From assembly GCA_029260035.1 (NCBI GenBank), contig JAJDEA010000079.1, positions 4,803-68,802 on the forward strand: 64,000 nt of DNA, written 5' to 3'. This DNA is from Phycisphaerae bacterium (lineage in GTDB: Bacteria > Planctomycetota > Phycisphaerae > UBA1845). Within the stretch, counting starts at the first letter, position 1; every line of letters starts with the position of its first letter. The position numbers and the translations under genes are program-made. The notes beneath the pieces were generated by a model that saw only the letters and a program-made list of their open reading frames with translations, did not search any database and had not been told where the DNA came from. Positions 3,641 to 20,223 of this stretch are shown piece by piece.

Positions 3641-3655
3641 AGGTGCTTCATCCAA

Positions 3656-5020: not shown

Positions 5021-5030
5021 AGGGTTTGCC

Positions 5031-6461
5031 TCATTCTTGTTTACGTTTCTTATTAGTCATGCCCTTGTCACGCGGCGAGGCTTTCTTCCTCGCCGCTTTC
5101 GGTATCTTTCGCTTCGTAGTGGATGTCGCGCGACTCTGCTTTGGTGACTTCTTTGGTTTGGCTTCCGAACGCGACTTATCCGCTCCGACGTCATCGCTAC
5201 CATCAAGGATAAGCTGACCTGACACAAATAGCTGCTCCACATGGCTGTAGTCCGTCGATTCAATGGTCCCTCGTCGTAGCTCCCTGCGAATGCGCCTCTC
5301 TACTTTCTTGAGCAGATCGATTATCTCCTCGCGCTGCTCGTCAACACCGGGATCAAGTGCGTCTGGGCGTTTTGCGAAATTGAGCTGGAGTGGTTGCCGT
5401 CCAAGCCCATGAATCGATGACCAAGCGTGTGCATCGCTTAAGTTGTAGATTGTGTCGACGACGCATTGTAAGTTGAAGATCAGAGCCTCTCGTCCGAGCG
5501 ACGCCTTGGCGATGTCCGATGACAAAGTAGTGGTGAGGGACCCCATGATTGAAGGTCCAAAGTCGACGCGATCGGGAACATAGACATACTCACTCCGAGT
5601 TCGCGCTTCCTGTGTGCATGCCTCGGATATAAAAAACTCAACCTGACGACCGTTAACAGCCTCAACAACGTCACATGACACGGCATCGACACGAAATGAA
5701 TCGTCGTCATTTGGGTTGCTAAACCGCATCGTTAGAATCGTATCGGCGATTCCGCGCTCAATCGACCAATAAGAAAGTTGGGATATACACTCGTTCAAGC
5801 GGTCAGTACTGCTTAAGAGCCACCGACGATATGCTTCAGCCATCACTTCGGAGTATAGTCTCTGAAGCAGGTTTTTGTCGGTGACACTCGTAGCAAGGCG
5901 TAGCTCCTCCGACACAAACTCCTCGGGGATTGAGTATTCTGGCGTAGTTTCATTCTGGTACTGCGAATCGATCAAGCCAAGTTCGTACACAGCAGGAGGC
6001 CATGCAAGCAACCGAAAATCCAGATCAGCATGTCCCGATCGCAACGCCCACAGCATGAGCACCTGACTGGCTGAGCGCACTAGCGCGGATGTAAGGTCCG
6101 ATCCCGCCGGTGGTGAGTCGATGCCTTGAGGTACTTCATGATTCTCGACCGCCAACAGTCCGGCGATCAAGTTTTGGGCAATATCGTAGCCTGAGCTATA
6201 GAGTCGTTTGGCTTCAGTAGGTGAATTCCGAACATCTGCAAGGTGGAATAGTTGTCGGCGTTCGTGGTCAGATAAATCGAGCGCGTCAACGACTTGAAGA
6301 AGCACATACTTATTGATCTTACGACGTGAACGCTCCCAGTCGGAGATGAAATCCGGATTGCGGATATCCTTGAGACGTTGCGACAACGCGTGCGCGCTTA
6401 TACCGCGAGCTTTGCGAAGCGAGCGGAGTTGCTCGCCAAATCTATCTGGGGGGCGTTTCAT
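5031..6461 (-). CDS. XRE-type HTH protein, candidate repressor-c analogue of copy 1, with a large C-terminal domain and a lysine-rich tail
   Basis: 476 aa. N-terminal FGEQLRSLRKARGISAHALSQRL is an XRE-type HTH. The C-terminus KSRSEAKPKKSPKQSRATSTTKRKIPKAARKKASPRDKG is lysine-rich. It is transcribed leftward, divergently from the transposition genes. The N-terminal ~120 aa is homologous to 13399-14667. Confidence 0.6.
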   Translation of the reverse strand: MKRPPDRFGEQLRSLRKARGISAHALSQRLKDIRNPDFISDWERSRRKINKYVLLQVVDALDLSDHERRQLFHLADVRNSPTEAKRLYSSGYDIAQNLIAGLLAVENHEVPQGIDSPPAGSDLTSALVRSASQVLMLWALRSGHADLDFRLLAWPPAVYELGLIDSQYQNETTPEYSIPEEFVSEELRLATSVTDKNLLQRLYSEVMAEAYRRWLLSSTDRLNECISQLSYWSIERGIADTILTMRFSNPNDDDSFRVDAVSCDVVEAVNGRQVEFFISEACTQEARTRSEYVYVPDRVDFGPSIMGSLTTTLSSDIAKASLGREALIFNLQCVVDTIYNLSDAHAWSSIHGLGRQPLQLNFAKRPDALDPGVDEQREEIIDLLKKVERRIRRELRRGTIESTDYSHVEQLFVSGQLILDGSDDVGADKSRSEAKPKKSPKQSRATSTTKRKIPKAARKKASPRDKGMTNKKRKQE

Positions 6462-6589
6462 TCCGGGAATCTTACCACCTTCAGGGTTTATTGGTATCTT
6501 ACTGGGCTTTCCAAATAATCACGGCAAATTTCCGGATTATTTTATTGACATTCCGGATTTAATCTGGTATTCCCGCGTTCGTGGAAACT
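6462..6589. promoter_or_regulatory. Divergent control region of copy 1 with two TTCCGGATT direct repeats (candidate operators)
   Basis: AATTTCCGGATTATTTTATTGACATTCCGGATTTAATC lies between the leftward repressor-like gene and the rightward regulator/transposase operon. The corresponding region of copy 2 (14668-14788) has a different sequence. Confidence 0.35.
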
Positions 6590-6826
6590 ATGGAGCCGAG
6601 ATTTCGACGCGATGCGATCCGGGAGTTAATGGAACGTGAGGGTCTAAACGCCAGCGCCTTCGCATCCCGAGCCTCGGTTCAAAGAACGCTGATTGGCGGA
6701 TGGTTGGCAGGCGTCGTGACACCGCAGGTCGGAACGCTTACGCGTCTATGTCGCGTGTTCAATGTTCCGATCGATTTCTTCTTCGACCAGGCGCCGAGCG
6801 ATCCGGTTAAGCAAGGAATGGTATGA
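6590..6826 (+). CDS. Small HTH-like DNA-binding protein (Ner/Cro-position regulator)
   Basis: MEPRFRRDAIRELMEREGLNASAFASRASVQRTLIGGWLAG... Paralogue at 14789-15034. 4-bp ATGA overlap with the next gene. Confidence 0.5.
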   Translation: MEPRFRRDAIRELMEREGLNASAFASRASVQRTLIGGWLAGVVTPQVGTLTRLCRVFNVPIDFFFDQAPSDPVKQGMV

Positions 6827-7134
6827 GTAGAAGCACAGACAACACGAAGCCAATCCCACGGGTAACGGTGCGGTGTCTGAATCGGGTTCTCATCGGCGAG
6901 CGCATCCATGATCTTCGAGTCGAACGCGGCTGGAAGGCTCTTCAATTAGCACGCGCGACGGGAATTCCACGAAGTACGATTGCTGCGATCGAAACCGGTC
7001 GAATGCTCCCGGACCCTGACAGATTTCTGGTACTCGCCGCAGTGTTTTGCATTTCGGTCGATTTTCTCATGACGGGTAGATCATCGCCCGTCGAGGCTAT
7101 GCATGATGGCAACGAGCACACAAACGAGAACTGA
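6823..7134 (+). CDS. XRE-family HTH regulator
   Basis: GWKALQLARATGIPRSTIAAIETGRMLPDPDRFLVLAAVFCISVDFLM is a typical HTH_3 domain. Paralogue at 15031-15330. Confidence 0.65.
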   Translation: MSRSTDNTKPIPRVTVRCLNRVLIGERIHDLRVERGWKALQLARATGIPRSTIAAIETGRMLPDPDRFLVLAAVFCISVDFLMTGRSSPVEAMHDGNEHTNEN

Positions 7135-7669
7135 GGATATGAACGCAAATGCAATAGGGCGAAGCGTACCTTTCCCAGGCGAATGGGTGACGATTTCCGA
7201 AGCCGTACGACTGACGGGCGAACGACAGGGAATATGGTGTCGACGCGCTAACCGTGAATTTAGCAATGCACTAGACGTCGGTCGCGCCTCACATGCGATC
7301 AAAGCACCCATTGGCGGTGGCAGTTCCCGAATCATTTGGTGGCTATATCGCGGGCTTGACGCACGCTTGGCATTGGATTTGGACGAACAAATTCGTCGAG
7401 ACAAGGCCAGTGTTTTTCCATTCTCGAAAGAGAAGCAAAAGCGAGCTTGGCGCCGATGTCGTTGGGTCGTTGAGTGGCGTCGACTATGTAACGAGGAACC
7501 CAAAGGTGGACGAACACGAAGACAACTCGCCGGGCTAGTTGTGAGCGCGGCGAAACTGATAGACGGCAATTGCTTCAAGATCAGTATCCGATCACTTCAG
7601 GGATGGTGGCGTCGCTATGCTGCCATAGGCCGTGGTGGCGGTATCGTCGGAGTCGAAGGGTTGATATAA
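7103..7669 (+). CDS. Stand-alone paralogue of the MuA-like transposase N-terminal DNA-binding region (candidate transposition regulator)
   Basis: GEWVTISEAVRLTGERQGIW...RIIWWLYRGLDARLALD...FKISIRSLQGWWRRYAAIGRGGGIVGVEGLI aligns with the N-terminus of 8268-10613 (DWLTVDQAARLTGDSPRTIRW...AVWLIHRRLDHRL...FTVSVRSLQIWRRAYNDTTPGGRIAGIAGLI). Confidence 0.55.
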   Translation: MMATSTQTRTEDMNANAIGRSVPFPGEWVTISEAVRLTGERQGIWCRRANREFSNALDVGRASHAIKAPIGGGSSRIIWWLYRGLDARLALDLDEQIRRDKASVFPFSKEKQKRAWRRCRWVVEWRRLCNEEPKGGRTRRQLAGLVVSAAKLIDGNCFKISIRSLQGWWRRYAAIGRGGGIVGVEGLI

Positions 7670-7722
7670 ACGATGCGACTGGTGAGAGTCATAGGGACGA
7701 CACAAGGATGATGGAGGCAACG

Positions 7723-8019
7723 ATGACGAGTACCAAGAAGCGAGCGAAGACGAAACGTGCTCGAAGCGTAGCCAGCGTCAGTCGCAAGACGGCGACGGCC
7801 AAGACAAGAAGCAATCGAGACCGGAAGCTCGTGCTAAGTGTTTCTGACGTTGCGATTTTGGACCGAATGCTTGAGGACGGTTCAATCAGTGAGGTCGTCA
7901 CTTTGTCAGCGAGTGATCTGGCGACTTGGGTTCACAACGCCGGAACCGACGCGGATCGAGCGGAAGCGCTCGTGGCAGTCTTACCGGTAGCGAGGCGTGT
8001 GTACGCGCGATGCAATTAG
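7723..8019 (+). CDS. Hypothetical protein with Arg/Lys-rich N-terminus (conserved in both copies)
   Basis: GGAGG lies 5 nt before the ATG at 7723. MTSTKKRAKTKRARS... Paralogue at 16203-16500. Confidence 0.4.
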   Translation: MTSTKKRAKTKRARSVASVSRKTATAKTRSNRDRKLVLSVSDVAILDRMLEDGSISEVVTLSASDLATWVHNAGTDADRAEALVAVLPVARRVYARCN

Positions 8020-8020
8020 A

Positions 8021-8230
8021 ATGACCGACACGATCGACAGTCCACAGGTCTTTCCGTTTCGACCGGACATGTGCCGAGCTATTGAGCACACGGACACGCC
8101 GGAGCGTGAGGCGGCACTACGGCAGGCGCACGCGCTCATCGATCGGCTCGGAACAGCGGACGTGATTGCGACACTCCCGGTGTTGGGCAAATACGCCCAT
8201 TCGGTAGAGCAGGAGCGTAGGCCTGTTTGA
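8021..8230 (+). CDS. Hypothetical small protein (conserved in both copies)
   Basis: MTDTIDSPQVFPFRPDMCRAIEHTDTPEREAALRQAHALIDRLG... Paralogue at 16502-16711. Confidence 0.4.
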   Translation: MTDTIDSPQVFPFRPDMCRAIEHTDTPEREAALRQAHALIDRLGTADVIATLPVLGKYAHSVEQERRPV

Positions 8231-8267
8231 ACGGAGATAGGCTGGACAGAATCGCGAGTAGAAATCC

Positions 8268-10613
8268 ATGGCGTTAGTGGCACGAAATCTTGCGACGGAA
8301 ATCGACGAAAGGGATTGGCTGACAGTCGATCAGGCCGCACGTCTTACCGGCGATTCGCCGCGTACGATTCGCTGGCGTGCTTTGAATGAAGCTGGTGATT
8401 CACGTCGTAGCGGACGAATGCCGCTAGCCCGGAAAGCACCGTCTCGCGATGGCCGAACGAAGGCCGTATGGCTGATTCACCGACGCCTGGATCATCGTTT
8501 GTCCCGCAACGTAAGTAAGCCCGACCGAGAAAGCCGCGATCGTAACGTGCTTCTCGAAAAGTATCCGAAACATGCCATCGATGGAGCCTATCGCAAGGCT
8601 CACTGGCTCCGACGATGGGATCAACTTTGTCAGGAACATCGATTAGCCGGTGAGTCCGAACTGACACTTGCTCGGAGAGTCGTTGCCGAGGCCAAAGCCG
8701 TTGAGGCGGGTCAATTCACTGTGAGCGTACGAAGCCTGCAAATCTGGCGAAGGGCTTATAACGACACAACACCCGGTGGTCGAATTGCCGGTATTGCAGG
8801 GTTGATCGATCGGCGCTCGTTATCCGGGAATCGCGACGGCGGTGCTACTGGCTCAGTTGAGGGACGGTCGCCCGACGCGGTCGAGTATTTTTATGGTTTG
8901 TATCATTGCCAGAGCAGGCCGAGTGCCAAGACGTGCCATGCCGCAACACTTCGAGAATCCAATCGGCAGGGATGGGAATGGTCGGTGAGTTATTCCGCAA
9001 CATTGAAGTGGCTGAAAGTCTACGACGATCGTTCGGTGACGTGCCTCATGCGTGAGGGACACGACAAGTGGGCACGGAAATACATGGCGCACAATGAGGT
9101 TGATTACTCACTGATTGATCCGGGAGCGCTTTACGTTTGCGATCACACTCAGCTTGACTGCTGGTGCGAGCACGACGGGAAGCAACTACGACCGTGGCTG
9201 ACGGCGATACAGGACTGTCGTAGTCGTCGGATCGTCGGGTACCACGTCGGCATCGCACCGCATCAAGACGCGATTGTTGCAGCCATGCTTATGGCATTTC
9301 GAGAATGCGCCATACCGGAACGTATGCGGATCGATAACGGTCGGGATTTTACGTCTCGGCTGTTGACTGGCATTACCAAGGCAACCCGCGACCGGCTGCG
9401 CACAGAGCACGGACCAGACTGGCACCGCGTTCTCAAGCGAGACGCGAATCTTGTCGAGTGTGTCGATTCGCGGTTCATGGGTATCGTGCCGGAGCTTGGC
9501 ATCGAGCTAGTCTACGCGATTCCGTACGCGCCTTGGTCCAAGGGGCAACTCGAGCGCTGGTTCCGAACCTATCACGACCTGTGCTGCAAAACGTTTGCGA
9601 GTTATTGCGGGAATTCGGTGCTGACGAAACCGGAGTGTTTGGAAGCAATTCGTCGCGGCTATACGAAGGATCAAAAGCGGCGCCTTCGCAAGCGATACGG
9701 CAGGGCATGGAAGAAAGTGGCCGTGCTTCGGTTCGTCGATACTCGTGATGTACCAACACTGGATCAAGTGCGAGCGGCGACGGCTGAATCGATCGAAGTT
9801 TATCATCGCAGCCCGCACAGCGCCGACGATATGGGCGGTCGCACGCCCTTTGAAGTGTGGGGTACAGCGACGACGCTTCGCCGTGCCGAGGATCGCGACC
9901 TATTGTTCTTCATGCAGTCGCGTGGCGTCTACAAAGTTGGCCCCAATGGTGTTGGGTTCCGGGTTGGGAACAGGCGGCTCACCTACGGTGCTGCCGCACA
10001 GGAGCTTTACCGGCTTCGTGGCCGCGATGTGTTCATCACGCTCGATCCGTCCGACTTGTCGCACTGCTACGCTTGGACGCCAGAGCGTGCCAACCGCCGA
10101 TTCATTGTACGGTTGGATTCCAATGATCGACTATCACCTGCTGCAACGGTCGATGATTTGCGGGAAGCCAGCGCCACGATAGAGCGGCGGCGGAAGATTG
10201 GACGCAAGGCGCAACGTGAAGCACCCAAGCGAATGCGGTCAGTATCACAGGAACTCACGGCTCAGCGTCGCGAGCATGTGCAGGAACTTCGTGCGACCGG
10301 CACGGATGGGAAACCAAACGCCAATGTGAAGGTCGTCCGAACGGGGTTTGAAGGGGCATCGAAACCGGTTCGGACGCCATCCGCAAGCGGAAGTGCAAGA
10401 GACTTGAGTGCCGAGCGCGAGGCGCTTGGGTTTGTGCCGCCGCCTCCCGATCCTGAACCGAAACAGGAACGCGCGACGTTGGATATGATCGCTGGGAATG
10501 TGTGCTTGCCCAAGGATGGTAGCGAGCAAAAAGACGGCAAGGACGCCGAGGAGCCTAAATCGGACTTGCTCAGTCTGATTGCGGGGAATCGGCATGAACG
10601 AACAAACGAATAA
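8268..10613 (+). CDS. MuA-like DDE transposase (rve-type integrase core)
   Basis: 781 aa. N-terminal Mu-type DNA-binding region. Candidate catalytic triad D (VCDHTQLD), D (RIDNGRDF), E (PWSKGQLERWF). The long C-terminal region probably contacts the ATPase. Confidence 0.85.
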   Translation: MALVARNLATEIDERDWLTVDQAARLTGDSPRTIRWRALNEAGDSRRSGRMPLARKAPSRDGRTKAVWLIHRRLDHRLSRNVSKPDRESRDRNVLLEKYPKHAIDGAYRKAHWLRRWDQLCQEHRLAGESELTLARRVVAEAKAVEAGQFTVSVRSLQIWRRAYNDTTPGGRIAGIAGLIDRRSLSGNRDGGATGSVEGRSPDAVEYFYGLYHCQSRPSAKTCHAATLRESNRQGWEWSVSYSATLKWLKVYDDRSVTCLMREGHDKWARKYMAHNEVDYSLIDPGALYVCDHTQLDCWCEHDGKQLRPWLTAIQDCRSRRIVGYHVGIAPHQDAIVAAMLMAFRECAIPERMRIDNGRDFTSRLLTGITKATRDRLRTEHGPDWHRVLKRDANLVECVDSRFMGIVPELGIELVYAIPYAPWSKGQLERWFRTYHDLCCKTFASYCGNSVLTKPECLEAIRRGYTKDQKRRLRKRYGRAWKKVAVLRFVDTRDVPTLDQVRAATAESIEVYHRSPHSADDMGGRTPFEVWGTATTLRRAEDRDLLFFMQSRGVYKVGPNGVGFRVGNRRLTYGAAAQELYRLRGRDVFITLDPSDLSHCYAWTPERANRRFIVRLDSNDRLSPAATVDDLREASATIERRRKIGRKAQREAPKRMRSVSQELTAQRREHVQELRATGTDGKPNANVKVVRTGFEGASKPVRTPSASGSARDLSAEREALGFVPPPPDPEPKQERATLDMIAGNVCLPKDGSEQKDGKDAEEPKSDLLSLIAGNRHERTNE

Positions 10614-11736
10614 CGAACACGCCTTTGATCTTCTTTCTGAATCGTCGCGCGTGGCAAGGACGGCAAGGATGCTCGATCCGGATAAACAACTCAAGGACAA
10701 TCAGCGTAAAGACACTTGCGAACGTGTGCTTCGGTTTATCGAAGAACACGGCATCACCCAAGCAGCCGTGGCCCGCGAAGTGGGCATTAGCTCGACCACA
10801 ATCAGCGATATACTTCGTCTCCGGTACAAAGGCAAGACGTGTGATGCGCAGCTCGTCAAGTTGCATAATTGGCTTGAACTGGCCGCACGCCGCGAGAACC
10901 TCTTGCGTAACCGTCAATTCATTGAGACTTCGGTTGCGAAGGAAATCCTTCAAGTGGCCTCAATTGTCGCGGAAACATGCCGTATCGGTGTCATTTTTGG
11001 ACCTGCGCAGATCGGCAAGACGTTTGCGCTCACGGCGATCGAAGGTGACCAGCGATTCGGCGACCCGGTTCTCATACGGATCGATGAATCGATGCTCCGC
11101 CCTATGCCGGTGTGCCGTGCACTCGCGTCACGGTTTGAACTCAGCACGAATGGTCCGTTCGATACGCTATTCAGGCGGATCATCAAGCGGTTGGCAGGCA
11201 CCAAGCGCATGCTGATATTCGACGAAGTCGAACGCGTGAACTACAAGACGCTCGAAATGATCCGTGACCTGCACGACAAAACCGGCTGCCCTGTCTTGCT
11301 TGCAGGTAAACCGATGATCTTCGCAAGGCTCGGGTTTCGTGAGGTAGGCGATTTTTCGGAAGTAACGGACCAACTGGCCGCACGTGTTGTGATTCGGCGC
11401 GACCTTACTGAACGCACGCGTGGCGATCAACCCGAGCCGTTATTCAGCCTCGAAGACATACGCAAACTGATTGGTCGATCTGAACTGAATCTGCGAGTAT
11501 CGAAGGACGCCGAAAAGTGGCTGCAAGAAAGAGCATCCACGCTTGGCATGGGTGGCATCGGAGCCGCGCTCGTCGCACTTTATCTTGCCGCGAAAGTGGC
11601 ATTCTCGAAGGGCGGCGAATCGATCACAAATACTGATTTGGAAAAGGTTTCCGACTTAACGATCGGGCATGAGAGCGCGTCATACATCGCCGATGTGGTA
11701 GCAGAATCATCCGGTGTCATGCGGAGGGTTGTTTGA
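10594..11736 (+). CDS. MuB-like AAA+ ATPase transposition helper with N-terminal HTH
   Basis: N-terminal HTH GITQAAVAREVGISSTTISDIL. Walker A GPAQIGKT. Walker B LIFDEVE. Overlaps the end of the transposase gene by ~20 nt. Confidence 0.8.
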   Translation: MNEQTNNEHAFDLLSESSRVARTARMLDPDKQLKDNQRKDTCERVLRFIEEHGITQAAVAREVGISSTTISDILRLRYKGKTCDAQLVKLHNWLELAARRENLLRNRQFIETSVAKEILQVASIVAETCRIGVIFGPAQIGKTFALTAIEGDQRFGDPVLIRIDESMLRPMPVCRALASRFELSTNGPFDTLFRRIIKRLAGTKRMLIFDEVERVNYKTLEMIRDLHDKTGCPVLLAGKPMIFARLGFREVGDFSEVTDQLAARVVIRRDLTERTRGDQPEPLFSLEDIRKLIGRSELNLRVSKDAEKWLQERASTLGMGGIGAALVALYLAAKVAFSKGGESITNTDLEKVSDLTIGHESASYIADVVAESSGVMRRVV

Positions 11737-11783
11737 AATAACAAGGTTGTTCCGAACGGAACTCAATAGTTATCGCGGTGGAT

Positions 11784-12230
11784 ATGATGATCGCAAACAT
11801 AAGAACAGAACGAGGTTCGAGCACACCAAAGCAACGGCAACTGCTTCACCAGCTTAAGAGGCGGTGGGGTTGGACGGACGATCAGCTTCACGACGCGATC
11901 GGCGCAGTAAGTACAAAGGTTCTGTCCGCCGCCGACGCGAGCCGTTGCATCCGTCGTCTAGGCGGCGGAGAGTTGCCGAATCCGCCCGGTCGAAAGCCAG
12001 CCCCGTATCAGGGAAGGAGACAGAAGACTGACGCAACTCGCATGATTGCTCCGGGACACGAAGAGCAAATCGAACGGTTGCTCCGCGAGCACTTTGGCGA
12101 CTTGGAATCCGGCTTAGCTTGGCTCGAAAAGAACTTTGACGTGCAATGTACGCGCGACCTTTTGACAGCGAAAAGAGCGGGTGAAGTGATCTACGTTCTC
12201 AAGGAGATGATCGCCCGAACCAATAAATGA
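11784..12230 (+). CDS. GemA/gp16-like (DUF1018-like) small regulatory protein, tentative
   Basis: ~149 aa. KQRQLLHQLKRRWGWTDDQLHDAIGAVSTKVLSAADAS resembles the GemA-family N-terminal pattern (K..LI.KIHIA...LGLDDD.YR..L..V.GK.S). It is the last gene before the right end. Confidence 0.5.
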   Translation: MMIANIRTERGSSTPKQRQLLHQLKRRWGWTDDQLHDAIGAVSTKVLSAADASRCIRRLGGGELPNPPGRKPAPYQGRRQKTDATRMIAPGHEEQIERLLREHFGDLESGLAWLEKNFDVQCTRDLLTAKRAGEVIYVLKEMIARTNK

Positions 12231-12360
12231 GACGGCTTTGACCGTTATTTGAAGTGCCTTCGATGGCCGTTCAAACGGCCTTCGGAATTTGAAAACTCAC
12301 AACGCTCCCGACGACTCGTTATACGCAAAACCCGAGTCGATCAGGGAGCGTTCGTCTTAT
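12231..12360 (+). repeat. Conserved right-end block of copy 1, containing an inverted copy of the end core
   Basis: Near-identical to 20718-20847. TACGCAAAACCCGAG at 12321-12335 is the reverse complement of CTCGGGTTTTGCGTA; compare CTGGGTTTTGCGCA at the left end. Confidence 0.55.
12265..12290 (+). terminator. Possible intrinsic terminator after the GemA-like gene
   Basis: Hairpin GGCCGTTcaAACGGCC followed by TTCGGAATTT. Copy 2 has a partly compensatory variant GGCTATCCAAACAGCC. The T-tract is weak. Confidence 0.25.
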
Positions 12361-12706
12361 ATCCGTCGCGCAGAGTAGTTCCGTTTCGCGCAGAGTACGG
12401 TTCCCCTTTAGAGTTGTTGTAAAATAAGGACTTACGGGAATTGTTGATCCTAATCAATTTCGCAGCGCAGAACGGATTGGCGGTTGGAACCTACAATTGG
12501 GCGCCGTGAGGGCGGGAGAGAATCGGCAATCGGCAATAGCAACGGCAATGTCCGGAATCGGACGCACAAAACTTCGCAGTACCGCTGCAATTCCAAGCCA
12601 GCCTCTGATCCTGTGATTTTCGACTCAACCGCTGGTTTTGGACGTCGTCCGGACCACCTTCGACGGCGGTTTGGACGCCCTTCGATAGTGGTTGGACGAG
12701 GCTCGA

Positions 12707-13396
12707 TTATAGAGTATTCCATACCTCGATCCCCCCTTCGCCGACAACCCAAAGAAATAGAAGAATCCCAGCCGCGAAGAATGCGCCGCTTAGCCAAAAC
12801 CAGAACTTCCGAGCATACTTTTCGACTTTCAGCACTGCCGTAAAAACTCGGTTGTGTCGAATCTGGACTCCTTCGTGGTCGTGTTTCCGATTCATTGGCT
12901 GAAGGTTTGAATCAATAATCCTGAATGCGTCATCCGGTTTCAATGGTTGTAGCCCATGCGCTGAACCACACATTTGAAGCAAAGCAATACGCATTTCTTT
13001 CGATGCACGCCTTTCGGCAATCCACAGAAATTCCCGCAGTTGAGCTGGACCTGCATGGTCTTTTCGGTAGTCACCAAAACTACCGTACCTTTTGACGATC
13101 TCGGGGCAGGCGATCCAATAGATTGCTTGCCCAATTACGAAGAGACCGGACATGAGGTAAAAACGCTGCCAACTGAACGGCAGTGCAATCGTAACAGTAA
13201 TCGGAGCATCAATGCCGAACCCGAGATGCGAGAAGTCGAGGGTATGTTGACCTGCAAAGGGAGCGAGCAACTTGGCAGCGATGGGCACAACGAGTAGCCA
13301 AACAAATGAAAATGTGACGAGTCGGCTGTTGCCGAGTGCTCGGAGCAAGCCCCAGTGGAAACCGCTGTCCCAAGTTGCCGTCTTAAGGTCTACCAT
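12707..13396 (-). CDS. Small integral membrane protein (cargo of copy 2)
   Basis: 229 aa with several hydrophobic helices (LVTFSFVWLLVVPIAAKLLAPF, LMSGLFVIGQAIYWIACPEIV, FWFWLSGAFFAAGILLFLWVVG). No recognisable family. Starts 2 bp after the stop of the upstream HTH gene. Confidence 0.5.
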   Translation of the reverse strand: MVDLKTATWDSGFHWGLLRALGNSRLVTFSFVWLLVVPIAAKLLAPFAGQHTLDFSHLGFGIDAPITVTIALPFSWQRFYLMSGLFVIGQAIYWIACPEIVKRYGSFGDYRKDHAGPAQLREFLWIAERRASKEMRIALLQMCGSAHGLQPLKPDDAFRIIDSNLQPMNRKHDHEGVQIRHNRVFTAVLKVEKYARKFWFWLSGAFFAAGILLFLWVVGEGGIEVWNTL

Positions 13397-13398
13397 AA

Positions 13399-14667
13399 CT
13401 ACGATTTGCGTTTCTTCTTGGCTTTACCCTTGGCACGTTTGGTTGTTTTCGTCGTTTGCTCATTAGAAACGGTTGAATCGGATCGTGTCTCTGTCTTCAT
13501 GAGAGTCTTCGCTGACAATACAAGCTTCAGCATATTGGCCATCTCGCTCTCGGCCTCATCATAGACATCGCCTAGCGCATCCATCTTGTCAATGTTGCGC
13601 CTTGGAGCATCCGCCAACTGGAGATACATGTCGTACATAGCAACTATGACAAGGTGCTTTCCTTTTGGCATTAACCTCAGACTGAACGCGGCGTCGTGGA
13701 TGATCTGTTGGACGTATGCCGAGACTGGCTGTTCCCACTGTGCGCGGTCAAGAAATTCTCGTGCCAGAAATGCTGCGTGGACAGCCATTACGTCTACTGA
13801 GTCAAGTGGGTGCGGGAACACACGGAGATTGTCAGACTCGCTCATTGCACTGCAGGACGACCAAACTCTATCAATCAGCAGGCGTTCACATGTACGCGAA
13901 ATAACTTTTGCACTTACACCTTGCGCATTCAAAAGTCGGTCCGCTCGACCGTCGGCAAAATCGAACGTCAACCTTGTCTGAAGCAGCGGATCCCAGTCCA
14001 TCGAGTACCGACTCATCGCGGAAGCCAGTGTCATTGACCGATCTAAATCAGAGAAAAGCCAGAGGCGGTACACTCCGGCCATCGCCCTGCCGTTAATGGA
14101 AGTTCCGAGGGTCGAATTTACAAACCGCTTTTCCAATGAAGAGGGTAGAGCAACTGTTGATAACAGTCCCTTGGGTATAGGATGCGCCGACTCTTTCCGC
14201 TTCACGATCTTATTTTTGTAGACCCATTCTGGCCACTTAATGGCGTCTACACCATACTCGGTGAATCCACTTATTGCATAGAGAGCCAGGAGAAAGCAGG
14301 CTGGTACAGTGGCGTCAGACACCCCGTCCAACACGTCTTCGTCGATAGGCCCATGCTCGACATATGCCAAGGCGTTGGCTACGTTCGATGCGGCTATTTG
14401 CGCATCGTCTGTTAATTCGCTCCAGACATCTGGGTGATTTCGGTTGAACGCCAACTTCATGAGTTGCTGGCGTTCAGACGGAGTCAGACCCAGTTTTTGG
14501 ACAACCACACTTAGAATATCCATATTGACGGTGCGGTTGTACCGTTCCCATCCACCAATATATGTATCGCTTTTCCCGACGGCGCGAGAAACGGCCTGGG
14601 CGGTCATTCCTCGCTTTGTACGGAGTTTCTGTAGATAGACGCCGAATTCGTCGTGTGTTTGGGACAT
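13399..14667 (-). CDS. XRE-type HTH protein, candidate repressor-c analogue of copy 2, with a divergent C-terminal domain and a lysine-rich tail
   Basis: 422 aa. FGVYLQKLRTKRGMTAQAVSRAVGKSDTYIGGWERYNR is an XRE-type HTH. C-terminus TKTTKRAKGKAKKKRKS. The N-terminus is homologous to 5031-6461; the remainder is different. Confidence 0.6.
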   Translation of the reverse strand: MSQTHDEFGVYLQKLRTKRGMTAQAVSRAVGKSDTYIGGWERYNRTVNMDILSVVVQKLGLTPSERQQLMKLAFNRNHPDVWSELTDDAQIAASNVANALAYVEHGPIDEDVLDGVSDATVPACFLLALYAISGFTEYGVDAIKWPEWVYKNKIVKRKESAHPIPKGLLSTVALPSSLEKRFVNSTLGTSINGRAMAGVYRLWLFSDLDRSMTLASAMSRYSMDWDPLLQTRLTFDFADGRADRLLNAQGVSAKVISRTCERLLIDRVWSSCSAMSESDNLRVFPHPLDSVDVMAVHAAFLAREFLDRAQWEQPVSAYVQQIIHDAAFSLRLMPKGKHLVIVAMYDMYLQLADAPRRNIDKMDALGDVYDEAESEMANMLKLVLSAKTLMKTETRSDSTVSNEQTTKTTKRAKGKAKKKRKS

Positions 14668-14788
14668 GGCCGTATATTAGCCTCACAAGGTATATCCGCA
14701 ATGATATATCGTCGCGGCCATGGAAAGTGAAAATTATTTCATTTATTCTATAGACAAAGTAATTGAAATTACCGATAATCGAATCAGA

Positions 14789-15034
14789 ATGAATTTCTAT
14801 GAACCGAGATTTCGACGCGATGCGATCCGGGAGTTGATGGAGCGAGAGGGGCTGAACGCAAGCGCCTTCGCATCCCGAGCGTCGGTTCAAAGAACTCTGA
14901 TTGGTGGATGGTTGCCAGGCGTTGTGACACCGCATGTCGGAACGCTTACCCGCCTGTGCCGTGTGTTCGATGTTCCGATCGATTTTTTCTTCGACCAGGC
15001 GCCGAGCGATCCGGTTAACCAAGAAACGGTATGA
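14789..15034 (+). CDS. Small HTH-like DNA-binding protein (paralogue of 6590-6826)
   Basis: MNFYEPRFRRDAIRELMEREGLNASAFASRASVQRTLIGGWLPG... Confidence 0.5.
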   Translation: MNFYEPRFRRDAIRELMEREGLNASAFASRASVQRTLIGGWLPGVVTPHVGTLTRLCRVFDVPIDFFFDQAPSDPVNQETV

Positions 15035-15330
15035 GTAATAACACACCCAATACGAAGCGAATCGCACGCGTAACAGTGCCGTGTCTGAATCGCGTTTTGA
15101 TCGGCGAGCGCGTTCACGATCTTCGAGTCGAACGCGGCTGGAAGGCTCTTGAATTGGCTCGGGCAACCGGAATTCCACGAAGCACGATTGCCGCGATCGA
15201 AACCGGACGGATGCTTCCGGACCCTGACAGATTTCTGGCGCTCGCCATGGTGTTCGGTGTTTCGGTTGATTTTGTCATGCTCGGCGAACCGGTTCCCTGC
15301 GACGCAAGACAAGGACCAACGGATGCGTAA
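15031..15330 (+). CDS. XRE-family HTH regulator (paralogue of 6823-7134)
   Basis: GWKALELARATGIPRSTIAAIETGRMLPDPDRFLALAMVFGVSVDFVM. Confidence 0.65.
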   Translation: MSNNTPNTKRIARVTVPCLNRVLIGERVHDLRVERGWKALELARATGIPRSTIAAIETGRMLPDPDRFLALAMVFGVSVDFVMLGEPVPCDARQGPTDA

Positions 15331-16150
15331 AACGGAAGTCAACATTCCGGAAATTGTAGTGCCGCGAGTGACAAAATGCGGGATCGGCGTGCGACTCAAG
15401 CAGCTTCGGAGTAACCGCAACTTGACGGCTGAGTACGTTGCCCGAGCGATCAAACTCCCTACTCGATTTATCCGAACCGTGGAGCGGGGACGCATGATGC
15501 CGACGGCTGCGGAGCTTGTGGCACTTGCGGTGGTGTGCAGGACGTCCGTTGACTATCTCCTGATTGGCCAGTCTGCAACTCTCCACTGCTCAAACGATAG
15601 ATCGAGACGATCTCGCACGCTGCCAACGAGACCGATCGAGCAGCGCACGCCAGCCGCAGGCGAATGGGTCACCGTCCGTGAGGCCGCCCGGTTGAGCGGC
15701 GTGTCAGTTAGCAATTGGTACGCGCGTGCTATCCGCGTAGCCGAGTATGCGATGCGTACAGGAATTAAATCGCTAGCCGTCCATGCGCCGATTAGCAGGA
15801 ACGGATCGCGGCGCGTGTGGTGGTTGCATCGTTCGCTGGACGAACGATTGCGATTGGATTTCGACGCACAATTCAGGCTGGATCAATCCCGCAAGTTTCC
15901 ATGCTCCAAGGCACAACTTGAACGTGGAAGGCGACGGGCCAAGTGGGCTGCCGAATGGCGCAAGGCGTGCGACGCCCAAGCAAAGGGAAAACGAAACACG
16001 ATTGCGCTAGCGAAGCGCACAGTACGAAGGGCAAAACGCGCGGAAGGCTCGGGTTTCAAGATCAGCGTTCGATCTCTTCAGGGATGGTGGCGACGCTATG
16101 CAGGCTTAGGCCCTAACGGCGGTATCGCCGGAGTCAAAGGACTGATCTGA
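15323..16150 (+). CDS. XRE HTH fused to a MuA-N-terminal-like DNA-binding region (paralogue of 7103-7669 with an extra HTH)
   Basis: ATG at 15323 overlaps the previous stop. N-terminus VRLKQLRSNRNLTAEYVARAIKLPTRFIRTVERG is an HTH. C-terminus GEWVTVREAARLSG...RRVWWLHRSLDERLRLD...FKISVRSLQGWWRRYAGLGPNGGIAGVKGLI. Confidence 0.55.
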   Translation: MRKTEVNIPEIVVPRVTKCGIGVRLKQLRSNRNLTAEYVARAIKLPTRFIRTVERGRMMPTAAELVALAVVCRTSVDYLLIGQSATLHCSNDRSRRSRTLPTRPIEQRTPAAGEWVTVREAARLSGVSVSNWYARAIRVAEYAMRTGIKSLAVHAPISRNGSRRVWWLHRSLDERLRLDFDAQFRLDQSRKFPCSKAQLERGRRRAKWAAEWRKACDAQAKGKRNTIALAKRTVRRAKRAEGSGFKISVRSLQGWWRRYAGLGPNGGIAGVKGLI

Positions 16151-16202
16151 ATGGTTCAGTGATTAAGAGTCATAGCAACGGCACAAGGATGACGGAGGCA
16201 GC

Positions 16203-16500
16203 GATGACGACGACAAGGAAACGAGCGAAGACGAAACGTGCTCGAAGCGTAGCCAACGTCAGTCGCAAGACGGCGACGGCTAAAACAAGAAACAATCGAG
16301 ACCGGAAGCTCGTGCTAAGTGTTTCTGACATCGCGATTTTGGACCGAATGCTTGAGGACGGTTCGATCAGCGAGGTCGTTACTTTGTCAGCGAGTGATCT
16401 GGCGACGTGGGTTCACAACATCGGCACCGATCTGGATCGGGCGGAAGCGCTTGTGGCTGTCCTGCCCATAGCGAGGCGCGTGTACGCGCGATGCAATTAG
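16203..16500 (+). CDS. Hypothetical Arg/Lys-rich protein (paralogue of 7723-8019)
   Basis: GGAGG lies upstream of the ATG. MTTTRKRAKTKRARSVANVSRKTATAKTRNNRDRK... Confidence 0.4.
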
Positions 16501-16501
16501 A

Positions 16502-16711
16502 ATGACTGACACGATCGCCAATCCGCAGGTCTTTCCGTTTCGACCGGACATGTGCCGAGCTACTGGGCATGCGGACACGCCGGAGCGTGAGGCGGCGTTA
16601 CGGCAGGCGCACGCGCTCATCGATCGGCTCGGGACAGCGGACGTGATCGCGACGCTCCCGGTGTTGGGTAAATACGCCCATTCGATCGAGCAGGAGCAAC
16701 GGCCTGTTTGA
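16502..16711 (+). CDS. Hypothetical small protein (paralogue of 8021-8230)
   Basis: MTDTIANPQVFPFRPDMCRATGHADTPEREAALRQAHALIDRLG. Confidence 0.4.
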   Translation: MTDTIANPQVFPFRPDMCRATGHADTPEREAALRQAHALIDRLGTADVIATLPVLGKYAHSIEQEQRPV

Positions 16712-16748
16712 ATGACGATCGGTTGCATAGAACTGCGAGTAGGAACTC

Positions 16749-19100
16749 ATGGCGTTGGCTGTACAGAATCTTGAAAGAGAATGCGACGGCAAGGACTGGC
16801 TGACGATCGATGAGGCCGTGAGTCTTACCGGCGATTCGCCGCGAACGCTTCGCTGGCGCGCCTTGAAGGAGGCGGATGATTCACGTCGCAGTGGGCGAAC
16901 TCCACTAGCCCGAAAGGCACCGCCACGCGATGGTCGAACGAAATCAGTGTGGTGGGTTCATAGACGCTTGGATCGACGTTTATCTAGCTGTCCGAGCAAG
17001 CCCGACCGGAACGATCAGGACCGTGGAATGCTCTTGGAACGGTTTCCTGCCCATCAAGTCGAACACGCCTACCGGAAAGCGCGTTGGCTGCGTCAGTGGG
17101 AGCGCGCGTGCCAGCGCCGTCGGTCGAGCGACGTCACACAAAAGGCACTGGCGGAAAGCATTGTTACCGAGGCACGCGAAGTTGAGGGCGCCAGCTTTCA
17201 CATTAGTTACAGAGCGCTTCAACACTGGAGACGGGCATACAATGCGCGCCATGCGAACGGTCGAATTGCTGGGGTCTCAGGGCTAATTGATTGTCGGTCG
17301 ATTGAATCGCCAAAGGAAACCGACAGTGATACCAAGGGGTCGTCGGGAACTCGCGCTCCACAGTCCATAAATTTCTTCTATGAGATGTTCCACACCGAGC
17401 AACGCTTGAGCGTAAGGTTGTGTCACGAGTTGACAGCGCGTGAAGCCAAAAATAAGGGCTGGGCTTGGCCGCCGTCGTACAGTGCAACGTCTCGGTGGTT
17501 GTCACGCTATGACAACCGGTCCACTTCGTACCTGCTTCGCCATGGTACCGACGTGTGGTGCCATCGCTATATGCCGTTTCTTGAAATCGACTATACGGCA
17601 ATCGACCCCGGCCAGTTCTTTCAGACCGATCATCACCAGTGCGATTTTTGGATCGAACACGAGGGAAAGCAATTGCGCCCGTGGCTCACGATTGTGCAAG
17701 ACCTTAGAAGTCGGGCTGTGTGTGGATGGCACCTTGGCGTCAGTCCACACCAGGACGCCATCGCCGCTTGTTACCTCTCGGCATTCCGAAACTGGTCAAT
17801 TCCCGAAACGCTCCGGATCGACAACGGCAAGGATTTTGCGAGTCGTTTGCTGACCGGTGTCACCAAATCGACGCGTGAACGGTTGCGCCGAGAACACGGT
17901 TCAAATTGGCGACAAGTTCTCCGGAGAGACGAAAACCTAGTCGATCAAATTGATCCAAGGTTTGTTGGAATCACCGAAGAGCTTGGCATTGAAACGATCT
18001 ACGCAATCCCGTACAGCCCGTGGTCGAAGGGTATTACGGAGCGTTGGTTCGGTACGTTTGAAAACCGATGCGGAAAATCATTCACAACCTACTGCGGGAA
18101 CGCGGCATTCAACAAACCGCAGTGCCTGGACGTGATTCGGCGAGGCTACACCTCTGAACAAAAGCGTCGGCTTCGCAAGCGCCACGGTCGTGACTGGAAG
18201 AGAATCGCCGTATTGCGATTCGTGGACACGTCCGACGTCCCTACGCTGGATCAGGCACAGGCCGCAATCGGCGAGTATGTCGAAGAATACCACAATACGG
18301 CACATACCGCAGACGATATGGCGAATCGAACCCCCCTTGAAGTTTGGCAGACCGCGACGCAATTGCGACGGGCAGATGACACGGCTCTGCTTTTTCTCAT
18401 GCAGGCTCGCGGTGTGTACCGAGTCGGCCCTAACGGCGTCGCGTTCAAGGTCGGTGGTGTCCGCATGACGTACGGCATGGGGAATCAATACCTGTACAAA
18501 TACGTCGGTCGTGATGTGTTCATCACGATTGATCCGAACCACTTAGACTGTTGCTACGCCTTTACGCCAGACCGCGCCAATCGCCGCTTAATAGGACGGT
18601 TGGATGCGAACAAGCGAATCAGCCCAACGGCTACGGTGGCCGATCTTCGCGAGGCGAGTGCCGAAGTGGGACGGCGTCGGAAGATCATGCACAAAGCGGT
18701 TCGCGAGTCACCAGCCCGCACGCGGACCGCTGTTGACGAAATGGCCGCCAAACGTCGCGAGCGTGTGCAGGAACTCCGTGCGACCGGCACGGATGGAAAA
18801 CCAAACGCCAACGTGAAGGTTGTCCGAACAGGGTTTGAAGGGGCATCGAAACCAGTTCGGACGCCGTCCGCAAGTCGTAGCGCAAGAGACTTGAGTGCCG
18901 AGCGTGAAGCGCTGGGATTTGTGCCTGCACCTCCTGTTCCGGAGAAAAATCAGGAGCGTGCTACGCTGGATATGATCGCTTGGAATGTGTGCTCACCCAA
19001 GGATGGGAGCGAGCCAGATCATGGCACGGACGCCGAGGCGCCTAAGTCAGACTTACTGAGTTTGATTGCGGGGAATCGGCATGAGCGAACAGACGAATAA
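16749..19100 (+). CDS. MuA-like DDE transposase (copy 2)
   Basis: 783 aa. D (QTDHHQCD), D (RIDNGKDF) and E (PWSKGITERWF) are conserved. By eye, about two-thirds identical to copy 1, except the last ~100 aa, which are nearly identical. Confidence 0.85.
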   Translation: MALAVQNLERECDGKDWLTIDEAVSLTGDSPRTLRWRALKEADDSRRSGRTPLARKAPPRDGRTKSVWWVHRRLDRRLSSCPSKPDRNDQDRGMLLERFPAHQVEHAYRKARWLRQWERACQRRRSSDVTQKALAESIVTEAREVEGASFHISYRALQHWRRAYNARHANGRIAGVSGLIDCRSIESPKETDSDTKGSSGTRAPQSINFFYEMFHTEQRLSVRLCHELTAREAKNKGWAWPPSYSATSRWLSRYDNRSTSYLLRHGTDVWCHRYMPFLEIDYTAIDPGQFFQTDHHQCDFWIEHEGKQLRPWLTIVQDLRSRAVCGWHLGVSPHQDAIAACYLSAFRNWSIPETLRIDNGKDFASRLLTGVTKSTRERLRREHGSNWRQVLRRDENLVDQIDPRFVGITEELGIETIYAIPYSPWSKGITERWFGTFENRCGKSFTTYCGNAAFNKPQCLDVIRRGYTSEQKRRLRKRHGRDWKRIAVLRFVDTSDVPTLDQAQAAIGEYVEEYHNTAHTADDMANRTPLEVWQTATQLRRADDTALLFLMQARGVYRVGPNGVAFKVGGVRMTYGMGNQYLYKYVGRDVFITIDPNHLDCCYAFTPDRANRRLIGRLDANKRISPTATVADLREASAEVGRRRKIMHKAVRESPARTRTAVDEMAAKRRERVQELRATGTDGKPNANVKVVRTGFEGASKPVRTPSASRSARDLSAEREALGFVPAPPVPEKNQERATLDMIAWNVCSPKDGSEPDHGTDAEAPKSDLLSLIAGNRHERTDE

Positions 19101-20223
19101 CGAACACGCGTTTGATCTTCTTTCTGAATCATCACGCGTGGTAAGGACAGCAAGGATGCTCGATCCAGACAACCAACTCAAGGACAACCAGCGCAAGGAT
19201 ATTTGTGAGCGTGTGCTTCGGTTCATCGAAGAGCACGGAATCACCCAAGCATCCGTGGCTCGTGAAGTGGGAATCAGTTCCACAACGATCAGTGATATAC
19301 TTCGTCTCCGGTACAGAGGTAAGACGGGCGATGCGCAGCTCATTAAGTTGCACAATTGGCTTGAACTCGCCGCGCGGCGTGAGAATCTCTTGCGTAACCG
19401 CCAATTCGTTGAAACCTCCGTTGCCTTGGAAATACTCCAAGTGGCTACTGTCGTAGCGGAGACGTGCAAGATGGGTGTCGTGTTCGGTCCGGCACAAATA
19501 GGCGAGACGTTTGCGCTCACGGCAATCGAAGGCGACCAGCGCTTTGGCGATCCGGTTCTCATTCGGATTGACGAATCGATGCTTCGTCCGCTTCCTGTGT
19601 GTCGTGCGATCGCGTCTCAGTTTGAACTCAGTACAAACGGCCCGTTCGATACGCTATTCAGACGGATCATCAAGCGGTTGGCAGGCACAAAACGGATGCT
19701 GATTTTCGACGAAGTCGAGCGTGTGAACTACAAGGCGCTCGAAATGATCCGCGACCTACACGACAAGACCGGCTGCCCCGTGCTGCTTGCAGGTAAGCCA
19801 ATGATCTTCGCAAAGCTCGGATTCCGAGAGGTAGGCGACTTCTCCGAAGTGACAGACCAACTGGCCGCACGCGTTGTGATACGGCGCGACCTCACCGAGC
19901 GAACGCGTGGCGATCACCCGGCGCCGCTGTTTACTCTGAAAGACATCCGCAAACTGATCGGGCGATCCGATCTGAATCTAAAGGTAACGAAGGACGCGGA
20001 AAAGTGGCTGCAAGAGAGAGCATCCACACTTGGCATGGGTGGCATCGGGGCGGCGCTTGTTGCGCTCTATCTTGCTGCCAAAGTTGCGTTTGCGAAGGGT
20101 GACGAATCAATTACTAACGATCATCTGGAAAGAGTCACCGACTTAACGATCGGGCATGAGAGCGCAGCACACATTGCCGACTTGGTTGCGGATTCTTCCG
20201 GTGTCATGCGACGGGTCGTTTGA
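19081..20223 (+). CDS. MuB-like AAA+ ATPase with HTH (copy 2); Walker A lysine replaced by glutamate
   Basis: ~90% identical to copy 1 by eye, but the P-loop reads GPAQIGET (codon GAG at ~19504-19506, versus AAG at ~10996-10998 in copy 1). Confidence 0.8.
   Translation: MSEQTNNEHAFDLLSESSRVVRTARMLDPDNQLKDNQRKDICERVLRFIEEHGITQASVAREVGISSTTISDILRLRYRGKTGDAQLIKLHNWLELAARRENLLRNRQFVETSVALEILQVATVVAETCKMGVVFGPAQIGETFALTAIEGDQRFGDPVLIRIDESMLRPLPVCRAIASQFELSTNGPFDTLFRRIIKRLAGTKRMLIFDEVERVNYKALEMIRDLHDKTGCPVLLAGKPMIFAKLGFREVGDFSEVTDQLAARVVIRRDLTERTRGDHPAPLFTLKDIRKLIGRSDLNLKVTKDAEKWLQERASTLGMGGIGAALVALYLAAKVAFAKGDESITNDHLERVTDLTIGHESAAHIADLVADSSGVMRRVV

Follow-up and report, generated by a model that had tools for sequence, protein, structure and literature searches.

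The stretch of DNA analysed here, 64,000 nucleotides from a Phycisphaerae bacterium (assembly GCA_029260035.1, contig JAJDEA010000079.1, positions 4,803 to 68,802; hereafter the window), contains two related transposons of about 9 kb, which share one orientation and together occupy positions 3254-20899. We are highly confident that they form a nested pair of Mu-type cargo transposons, with ends that can be mapped to the base, and not a tandem array. The original prediction for this region had described a head-to-tail junction with a spacer between the copies. The right termini instead lie at 12412 and 20899, 75 bp past an inverted core that figured in that prediction, and the junction is a nested insertion with perfect 5-bp target duplications. 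The termini, the duplications, the nesting, the conservation of the sites and the protein families are all matters of direct observation. The structure is defined by the following features, where scores are those of a 28-nt position weight matrix (PWM) built from 34 termini of the family, and L1 is the first transposase-type site of a left end.

3249-3253, no strand: GCAAA, left copy of the outer target duplication; the identical 5-mer stands at 20900-20904, and both lie directly outside the family-defined termini.
3254-3301, + strand: left terminal 48 bp of the outer element (copy 2), starting TCTGAA (TCTGAAAT...); PWM score 31.2.
3268-3281, + strand: outer L1 core GGGTTTTGCGCAAG, within the outer left terminal 48 bp.
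3281-3287, + strand: GTTGCCA of the outer left end, adjoining the outer L1.
3297-3301, no strand: GTTGT, left copy of the inner target duplication and last 5 bp of the outer left terminal 48 bp.
3302-12412, + strand: inner element (copy 1), 9111 bp, 5'-TCTAAAAC...CCTTTAGA-3'; PWM scores 32.6 and 28.2, with GTTGT on both sides.
12413-12417, no strand: GTTGT, right copy of the inner target duplication, equal to positions 44-48 of the outer left end.
12413-20899, + strand: remainder of the outer element (copy 2), whose total length is 8530 bp without the duplicated 5 bp.
20900-20904, no strand: GCAAA, right copy of the outer target duplication, directly outside the outer right terminus.

Three findings show the nesting: right-hand homology stops where left-hand homology begins, the junction restores a left end, and both duplications are perfect. 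On self-comparison of the window, the right-hand homology of the two copies is unbroken to 12413 (versus 20900), and left-hand homology starts at 12412 (versus 3344). When 3254-3301 is joined to 12418 onwards, the alignment yields a left end colinear with every left end of the family. Across the 64 kb of the window the PWM picks out these four strong termini and no others, and comparison with shuffled sequences supports an imperfect terminal inverted repeat for the inner pair (p = 0.002) and the outer pair (p ~0.02). The two 48-bp direct repeats at 3254-3301 and 3302-3349, which are 79% identical, are the left termini of different elements. These repeats had been reported as left-end units and are real; the further versions listed at 12362-12430 and 20848-20900 are the right-end sites R2 and R1, which resemble the left unit in forward orientation because their core, TGCGCA, is palindromic. 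From 12413 on, the sequence continues the interrupted outer left end. The mapped ends leave the Fic gene outside the elements and lie after the GemA-like gene, in agreement with the boundaries drawn originally.

The order of events can be read from this structure. Copy 2 (8530 bp) inserted at GCAAA, and copy 1 (9111 bp) later entered the left end of copy 2 at its positions 44-48, duplicating GTTGT. The point of entry was the loop of a small inverted repeat in the outer element, and the insertion split the L1 of copy 2 (3254-3301) from the rest of that element (12413-20899). An outer-type single copy would be expected to begin with the TCTGAAAT...GTTGT unit and not at TTGTTGTAAAATAAGG, and the predicted uninterrupted sequence of the outer site is ...CTCTGGCAAATAACGTTTC.... 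Excising both elements restores a 51-aa open reading frame (ORF) on the minus strand (MVMKKRYLPEDVV..., from its ATG; 3117-3253 plus 20905-20925), which crosses the insertion point.

A true tandem array would account for the adjacency of the two 48-bp units and for their 79% identity. In this scenario the units would be a local duplication of the left terminus of copy 1, and copy 2 would have lost its first 43 bp by deletion or by recombination with the right end of copy 1; three relatives (L069, L071 and L029) do have an internally repeated L1-like module. We nevertheless consider this origin distinctly improbable. The identity of the units fits the divergence between the copies, whose shared blocks are 77-87% identical, and not a recent local duplication. 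Three coincidences would also be required: unit 1 would have to stop exactly 5 bp past the point at which copy 2 resumes, GCAAA would have to match by chance (1/1024), and the join would have to be perfectly colinear. Furthermore, the core of unit 1 (GCGCAAGT) is nearer to the right-end sites of copy 2 (CGCCAAGT), and that of unit 2 (GCGCAGA) is nearer to those of copy 1 (GCGCAGAG).

The ends of the nested elements were placed by reference to relatives. Approximately 90 relatives of the transposase, almost all from metagenome-assembled genomes and metagenomes of Phycisphaerae/Planctomycetota, were gathered and their loci (L numbers) compared, giving a set of 34 termini from independent loci with unrelated outside flanks. 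The family ends read 5'-TCTRAA...TTTAGA-3' and are imperfectly repeated in inverted orientation over ~28 bp, of which positions 21-26 hold the core TGCGCA. Read inwards, 34/34 termini align as TCTAA...TGCGCA, and all start T[C/A]T. The 19 left ends in the set start TCTRAAA (TATGAAA in two cases) and have unrelated upstream flanks. On the right, the same element in L004 and L005 is found in two contexts that diverge directly after ...TTCAGA (CCCTTCAGA), and nine further right ends have a common layout of hairpin, GTTCGTCWTATA, two sites and GGTGCCCTTTAGA, followed by unrelated sequence. Perfect 5-bp target duplications flank four elements: GTTGT and GCAAA for the inner and outer elements of the window, GTTTC for L023/L072 and GCATG for L074. 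Each full match has a chance expectation of 1/1024 at predefined positions, and the geometry of the duplications excludes a shifted terminus boundary. In L005 the duplication is partly visible, with CTCTC on the right and CTC on the left, where the contig starts; the full left 5-mer can be read from L004, an identical contig. No description of this Planctomycetota transposon family was found in the literature searched.

Read outwards, the right end can be described as a CTTCGATGG motif, a long hairpin after the last gene, a box with the consensus TTCGTCWTATA, two putative transposase sites (R2 and R1) and the terminus. In the window these are placed as follows.

12299-12360, + strand: inner hairpin and box; stems at 12302-12318 and 12333-12351, box TTCGTCTTAT at 12351-12360.
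12365-12412, + strand: inner right end; R2 at 12365-12378, R1 at 12385-12398, terminus CCTTTAGA at 12405-12412.
Outer right end: CTTCGATGG at 20745, hairpin at 20789-20838, box at 20838-20847, R2 at 20853-20866, R1 at 20874-20887, terminus at 20892-20899.

R2 and R1 are spaced 20-22 bp apart and follow the consensus YGTGCGCnnnnTAS in the right ends of relatives; within one element the two sites vary together. This layout bears directly on the original model, in which head-to-tail elements were separated by a 24-bp spacer and the right terminus was placed either at the inverted core (12337/20824) or else at ...CGTCTTAT (12360/20847), with ~50 bp of left-end-like target DNA or remnants of left units beyond it. 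Several of the observations behind it hold. The inverted core CGTTATACGCAAAACCCGAG is present in both copies and mirrors the left core, its reverse complement having an exact 10-mer (GGGTTTTGCG) in common with the left unit at 3268; the 24-mer TCGATCAGGGAGCGTTCGTCTTAT follows it identically in both copies; and the left-end profile aligns forward to 12383-12483. The model itself is very improbable. The box, R2, R1 and ...TTAGA are retained by nine single elements that lie in unrelated contexts, and the flanks of relatives diverge only beyond that point; R2, R1 and the terminus are conserved in 9+ relatives. R2 and R1 travel with the element in all relatives, and the real terminus lies 52 bp beyond ...CGTCTTAT. 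The 24-bp string is not an inter-element spacer: it comprises the 3' stem of the hairpin and the conserved box, inside the right end, and homology between the copies continues across it as far as 12413/20900. Neither 12337 nor 12360 allows a target duplication to be placed, and perfect ones flank 3302/12412 and 3254/20899. Finally, the inverted core sits in the hairpin loop in both copies and is not conserved, with no counterpart in L001, L002, L004, L009, L010, L025 or L023. It may be an extra site private to the two window copies.

The hairpin of the window has a predicted stability of -28 kcal/mol (z -5.9), and equivalents of different sequence occur in 4 relatives (z -4.2 to -6.8); three pairs of the stem show compensatory changes. 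A simple terminator scan misses it, the loop being too long and a T-run absent. Our guess is that it could act as a terminator or an insulator. The non-coding blocks that hold these features measure ~300 bp on the left and ~180 bp on the right of each element.

The left end, read inwards, consists of L1, an element-specific motif, a small inverted repeat, a second site (L2), a triplet of the element-specific motif, and CTTCGAYGG motifs. L1 is a site of the transposase type with the core TTTTGCGCAGA (GGTTTTGCGCAGAA), at about positions 15-28 of left ends. The corresponding features of the two window elements are listed below.

3302-3349, + strand: inner left terminal unit; L1 core GGTTTTTGCGCAGA at 3316-3329, then ATTGCCG at 3329-3335, which reverse-complements the triplet unit CGGCAAT.
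3340-3369, + strand: small inverted repeat TATAAGT-N-ACTTA around TTGTAAAATAAGG, from the left-end family alignment; in the outer element, the place of the inner insertion.
3390-3404, + strand: L2, a second L1-like site with the double core TTGCGCTGCGCAGAA; a column block kept in 13 left ends.
3456-3481, + strand: inner CGGCAAT x3 (starts 3456/3463/3475), the element-specific triplet.
3550-3598, + strand: two CTTCGACGG motifs of the inner left block; the motif also occurs in right-end blocks.
12458-12472: outer L2.
12524-12549: outer CGGCAAT x3 (starts 12524/12531/12543).
12658: CTTCGACGG motif of the outer left block.

Across the family, the small inverted repeat has the consensus CGTAAGT..TTGTAAAT..GTTACG, and the doubled core of L2 has the consensus TTCTGCGCnGCGCAGA at about +88. 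The left block of ~270-290 bp was correctly described as kept in both copies, with CGGCAAT x3 in each and the palindrome TTGATCCTAATCAA present: 3344-3611 and 12412-12679 are 84.7% identical with no indels. The 270-bp block shows no sign of coding potential: its substitutions lack a 3-base periodicity (18/12/11), and the two copies have no open frame in common. CGGCAAT occurs 26 times in the window against 13.6 expected, and the CTTCGAYGG motif 7 times against 1.75 expected; five occurrences of the latter fall within subterminal blocks, at both ends and always on the + strand. We rejected the palindrome as a functional site, as its arms measure just 5 bp and it is absent from relatives. A second left module of ~110 bp, combining an L1-like core with CGTAAGT..GTTACG, lies further inside in L069, L071, L029, L024, L014 and L088.

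The triplet is a family-wide feature. Three direct copies of a short unit lie 150-220 bp inside the left end (+155 to +180 in the window), and the sequence of this unit varies from one element to another. L1 is immediately followed by 7-12 nt that are the reverse complement of that unit, as with ATTGCCG and CGGCAAT in the window. Further L1-adjacent/triplet pairs are TGTCGTTTGC/GCAAACGACA in L028, CTTCGTTTGC/GCAAACGAAG in L034, TTGCCGTTGC/GCAACGGCAA in L069 and CCGCCGAAAGTC/GACTTTCGGCGG in L032. At least two exact reverse-complement 7-mer sites are present in 9/19 elements, compared with 9% of mismatched element pairs and 0/19 in a direct-orientation control. One inverted and three direct copies are most simply read as element-specific protein-binding sites, and we propose that the triplet could serve as a set of enhancer- or operator-like sites. 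From their conservation, the TGCGCA-core sites would be read by the I-beta/gamma region of the transposase. The triplet and its inverted L1-adjacent copy would be read by another DNA-binding module, most likely the N-terminal helix-turn-helix (HTH) of the transposase, in a manner resembling the enhancer/operator of Mu; alternative candidate binders are the two small HTH proteins and the N-terminus of the MuB-like protein. When copies 1 and 2 are compared, identity is only 35-48% over transposase residues ~120-300, where end binding is presumed to reside, and the cores of R1/R2 are different (GCGCAGAGTA and TCGCCAAGTA); the N-terminus is 72% identical and the triplet is identical.

Several observations count against this account of a Mu-type family with defined ends and sites. 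The flanks fail to match in L003/L004 (CTCTC versus GACTC) and L002/L086 (CCCAC versus GGAGT). The termini lack the TG...CA usual for Mu-type transposases, and their 3' ends read ...AGA or ...ATA (34 termini), so that a Mu-type cleavage chemistry would be deduced from the geometry of the duplications only. The transposases of the window fall under the Pfam cut-offs for Mu-specific domains. The match between the triplet and the L1-adjacent reverse complement is exact in just about half of the elements, and the putative roles of all binding sites derive from conservation and covariation. The N-terminal HTH of the transposase differs between groups of elements with different triplet types, a comparison that phylogeny confounds. 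With respect to the outer insertion, an exact 22-mer spanning the predicted junction of the empty site (CTCTGGCAAATAACGTTTCTTC) had 0 matches in metagenome contigs, and the 51-aa ORF that spans the junction had no homologue and no Pfam match.

The mismatched flanks could be due to chimeric assembly or to exchange between copies. One element with identical copies has two right flanks, and only that of L005/L006 (CTCTC) fits the left flank of L003/L004/L007. It may be that two insertions of an active multi-copy element were fused into chimeric contigs in L003/L004. An assembly artefact in the window, with reads from two separate repeat copies mis-joined in a metagenome-assembled genome, would be in keeping with these inconsistent flanks, with the frequent breaking of family contigs at element ends and with the apparent origin of the window from a 76-kb contig of that type, but it is the least probable reading of all, since copies just 77-87% identical in shared blocks and with different cargo would not have confusable reads over 9 kb, and a mis-join would not give matched 5-bp duplications at both levels or a base-exact restored left end.

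Nesting raises the question of how targets are chosen. Of the 30 termini for which 80 bp or more of flank is visible, five, distributed over four independent loci, lie no more than 50 bp from another terminus: the nested pair of the window, L014 (15-bp gap), L016 (two left ends head to head with a 10-bp gap) and L023/L072 (10-bp gap). In L023, a left terminus in exact reverse complement occupies the 12 bp just outside the right end; the element has thus entered a resident inverted left end at positions 8-12, with a 30-bp right-end fragment a few bp away. Because terminal segments make up a tiny fraction of genome and element, this clustering suggests that resident ends attract insertions, contrary to the target immunity of Mu and Tn7. 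It further suggests that the left ends of resident relatives may be preferred targets, a lead from a small and assembly-derived sample. The idea that insertion is targeted to sequences resembling the element's own left end, which had been put forward for the window, is partly supported, in so far as the inner element lies inside the outer left end and other ends lie 10-15 bp apart in L014, L016 and L023; it would apply as an apparent tendency of the family, in that small sample.

A broader proposal is possible, and we hold it tentatively, as one that may well prove wrong. Under this proposal, the lineage would invert target immunity by homing to the terminal ~50 bp of relatives, with the private triplet acting as an 'address' read by a variable module, and the TCT...AGA termini would mark a distinct branch of MuA/TnsB chemistry. 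The address would probably be read by the N-terminal HTH of the transposase and would evolve apart from the conserved TGCGCA end-binding code, and arrays would arise nested or abutted.

Other observations concern the surroundings of the ends. In L025 (3464-3664), an apparent left end of a divergent relative lies within ~100 bp after the right end. This putative left end contains a perfect inverted repeat, CGTAAGTC-N15-GACTTACG, together with repeated GTAACTGG cores and a run of GAATGCG repeats. Right-end partners for the distal clade (L014, L022, L024, L028, L034) were not found within 10 kb by inverted-repeat and profile searches. Candidate left-end remnants flanking L001 and at 3120-3150 of the window were discarded, as their scores of 3.5 and 5.0 bits lie within shuffle noise (top scores 6.3 and 5.0). 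A minus-strand tRNA gene has its 3' end at a distance of exactly 111 bp from the right terminus in both L001 (4471-4583, tRNA-Cys) and L002 (13642-13754, tRNA-Gly), and in L010 (5078-5197) a tRNA-Met lies 118 bp from the element end. A tRNA-like sequence in the window (3057-3115; 25.8 bits against a cut-off of 29) lies 138 bp before the outer left terminus and is the sole Rfam match in 1-22000. The gaps between element ends and nearby tRNA genes show no significant similarity to one another. There may be a preference for tRNA-proximal targets at a set distance. Self-comparison of the window also revealed a direct repeat of 92 bp (50670-50761 and 52859-52950; 78% identity) that has no relation to the transposons.

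Both elements have the same gene order. Leftward cargo and repressor-side genes are followed by rightward genes for small HTH regulators, the transposase, an overlapping AAA+ ATPase and a 150-aa protein.

3656-6461, - strand: inner cargo/repressor side; Ser/Thr kinase at 3656-5020 (Pfam Pkinase, 2e-37) and 476-aa HTH_31 protein at 5031-6461 (2e-8).
6581-6826 and 6823-7134, + strand: inner small HTH regulators; ORFs without a family match at 7103-7669 and 7570-8019.
8268-10613, + strand: inner MuA-type DDE transposase, 781 aa (PHROG 310 at 5e-77, residues 14-704).
10579-11736, + strand: inner AAA+ target activator of MuB type, 385 aa, HTH at its N-terminus (PHROG 296, 'DNA transposition protein', 5e-45; PDB 8xvb, Mu B, 3e-13; AAA_22).
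11778-12230, + strand: inner 150-aa GemA-like protein, a weak assignment (Pfam GemA E 0.05, full-length and sub-threshold; no PHROG match).
Outer genes: cargo at 12707-13396 (- strand) and 13399-14667 (- strand); HTH at 15031-15330; transposase at 16749-19100; MuB-like at 19066-20223; GemA-like at 20265-20717.

These assignments agree with the original description of Mu/Tn7-superfamily ends carrying several repeated subterminal sites, with MuA-like, MuB-like and weakly GemA-like genes. The window transposases have 781 and 783 aa; that of the inner element gives weak matches to rve, DDE_2 and Mu-transpos_C, and the nearest solved relative of the catalytic core by sequence is TnsB (5e-8). Among 26 members of the transposase family, HTH_Tnp_Mu_2 (Mu I-gamma) is found in 23/26, DDE_2 in 19/26 and Mu-transpos_C in 13/26. 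The transposase and MuB-like genes of the inner element overlap at 10579-10613, and the GemA matches of the 150-aa proteins (E 0.03-0.05) are under cut-off. The inner kinase (3656-5020) matches PADLOC models of PD-T4-6 at 4e-55; the outer cargo consists of a 229-aa protein without a family match and a 422-aa HTH protein.

Comparison of the two transposases (8268-10613 and 16749-19100) reveals a mosaic, with 72% identity at the N-terminus, 35-48% over residues ~120-300, ~65% in the catalytic core and 82-87% at the C-terminus, and the MuB-like and GemA-like proteins of the two copies are 90-91% identical. Such a pattern could have arisen if elements recombined with one another or if the end-binding region was under diversifying selection. 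The repeats of the divergent promoters also differ, being of ATTCCGG type in copy 1 (6462-6590) and of GTATAT type in copy 2 (14668-14800), and the leftward HTH proteins have 476 and 422 aa, respectively. These differences suggest distinct repressor/operator specificities, as would fit heteroimmune elements. A SoFic-type Fic gene (1717-2856; PADLOC SoFic 7e-123) lies just upstream of the elements. Given this gene and the PD-T4-6-like cargo kinase, the transposons sit in, and add to, a defence-island-like neighbourhood.

Phage structural genes were absent from the ORFs of either window element in searches of Pfam and PHROG. Elsewhere, L148 (1-18670) is a complete Mu-like phage with Mu F, portal and terminase genes, on a contig of 37 kb that has a left-type end at its extremity, and 9 similar contigs exist. 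L002 (4134-9997) carries a Mu gpT capsid gene and a protease gene between transposon-type ends, and two further relatives (L069/L145 and L088/L146) are IMG/VR viral contigs. Transposase genes of the phage clade point towards the left-type end, opposite to those of the window elements.

The present analysis provides base-exact ends, target duplications and a map of sites for a Mu-type cargo transposon family that is widespread in Phycisphaerae/Planctomycetota. Annotators can use these to delimit such elements and their cargo, here a PD-T4-6-like kinase module beside a SoFic-like gene.

The window elements work like a Mu transposition module, sharing most of the features that define Mu membership, and are not phages. 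In common with Mu and D108 they have, at family level, the Mu I-gamma, DDE_2 and Mu C-terminal domains, a MuB-type AAA+ partner and a 5-bp duplication. The ends are likewise asymmetric, with L1 and a distant L2 on the left and adjacent R1 and R2 on the right (all putative sites), and the genes include a divergent repressor-side gene, small HTH regulators and a weak GemA-like gene after B. Mu and D108 have common end sites and differ in enhancer/operator specificity, a difference that is mirrored in the window family by a conserved core and an element-specific triplet. Unlike Mu and D108, the family has termini of TCT...AGA (or TAT...ATA) and not TG...CA, and the window elements lack morphogenesis genes, measure 8.5-9.1 kb and carry cargo. 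The element-specific motif, moreover, is a triplet ~155-180 bp from the left end with an inverted copy at L1, and is not at the divergent promoter. In contrast to what Mu target immunity would lead one to expect, insertion took place 43-48 bp inside a related end; the partners are diverged and may not be cross-immune. A phmmer search of the PDB gave no match to MuA itself. 'Mu transposons' that carry cargo form an established class (PMC11656645), which the window elements resemble, by description only, in being non-phage elements with cargo and a Mu-type transposase, and from which they differ in lacking a CRISPR module.

Similarities to Tn7-like elements include TnsB as the nearest solved transposase core (5e-8), an AAA+ regulator, a 5-bp duplication, asymmetric repeated sites and clustering. 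However, the window ends are not TGT...ACA, the ATPase matches MuB and not TnsC, and clustering occurs at element ends and not at a host attachment site; TnsA, TniQ/TnsD and TnsE-like proteins were absent from the element ORFs in Pfam, PHROG and PADLOC searches. Three other assignments were considered and rejected. For the Tn5053/Tn402 family, no TniQ or resolvase domain was detected and TniB (0.007) was under cut-off. The IS21 family was set aside on the basis of element size (8.5-9.1 kb, with at least 8 genes), the lack of an IstB_IS21 match and the nested junction with its 5-bp duplication. An integrase-mediated tRNA island array was excluded by the absence of an integrase and by repeats that move with the element into unrelated contexts.

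IS30, through inverted-repeat targeting, and IS21, through tandems, insert at the ends of resident copies; the reactive junctions of IS dimers measure 2-3 bp. The present family resembles them in inserting into or beside resident ends and in its abutted ends, and differs in transposase family and size, in junction partners that are diverged relatives, in gaps of 10-15 bp or nesting, and in the lack of an IstB-type match. Overall, the family departs from textbook Mu in its TCT...AGA termini, in a triplet mirrored at L1 and in repeated insertion into or beside the ends of other copies. End-directed insertion, if true, would provide a natural exception to target immunity among systems that contain MuB; if not, the nested structure still corrects a misread tandem-array architecture.

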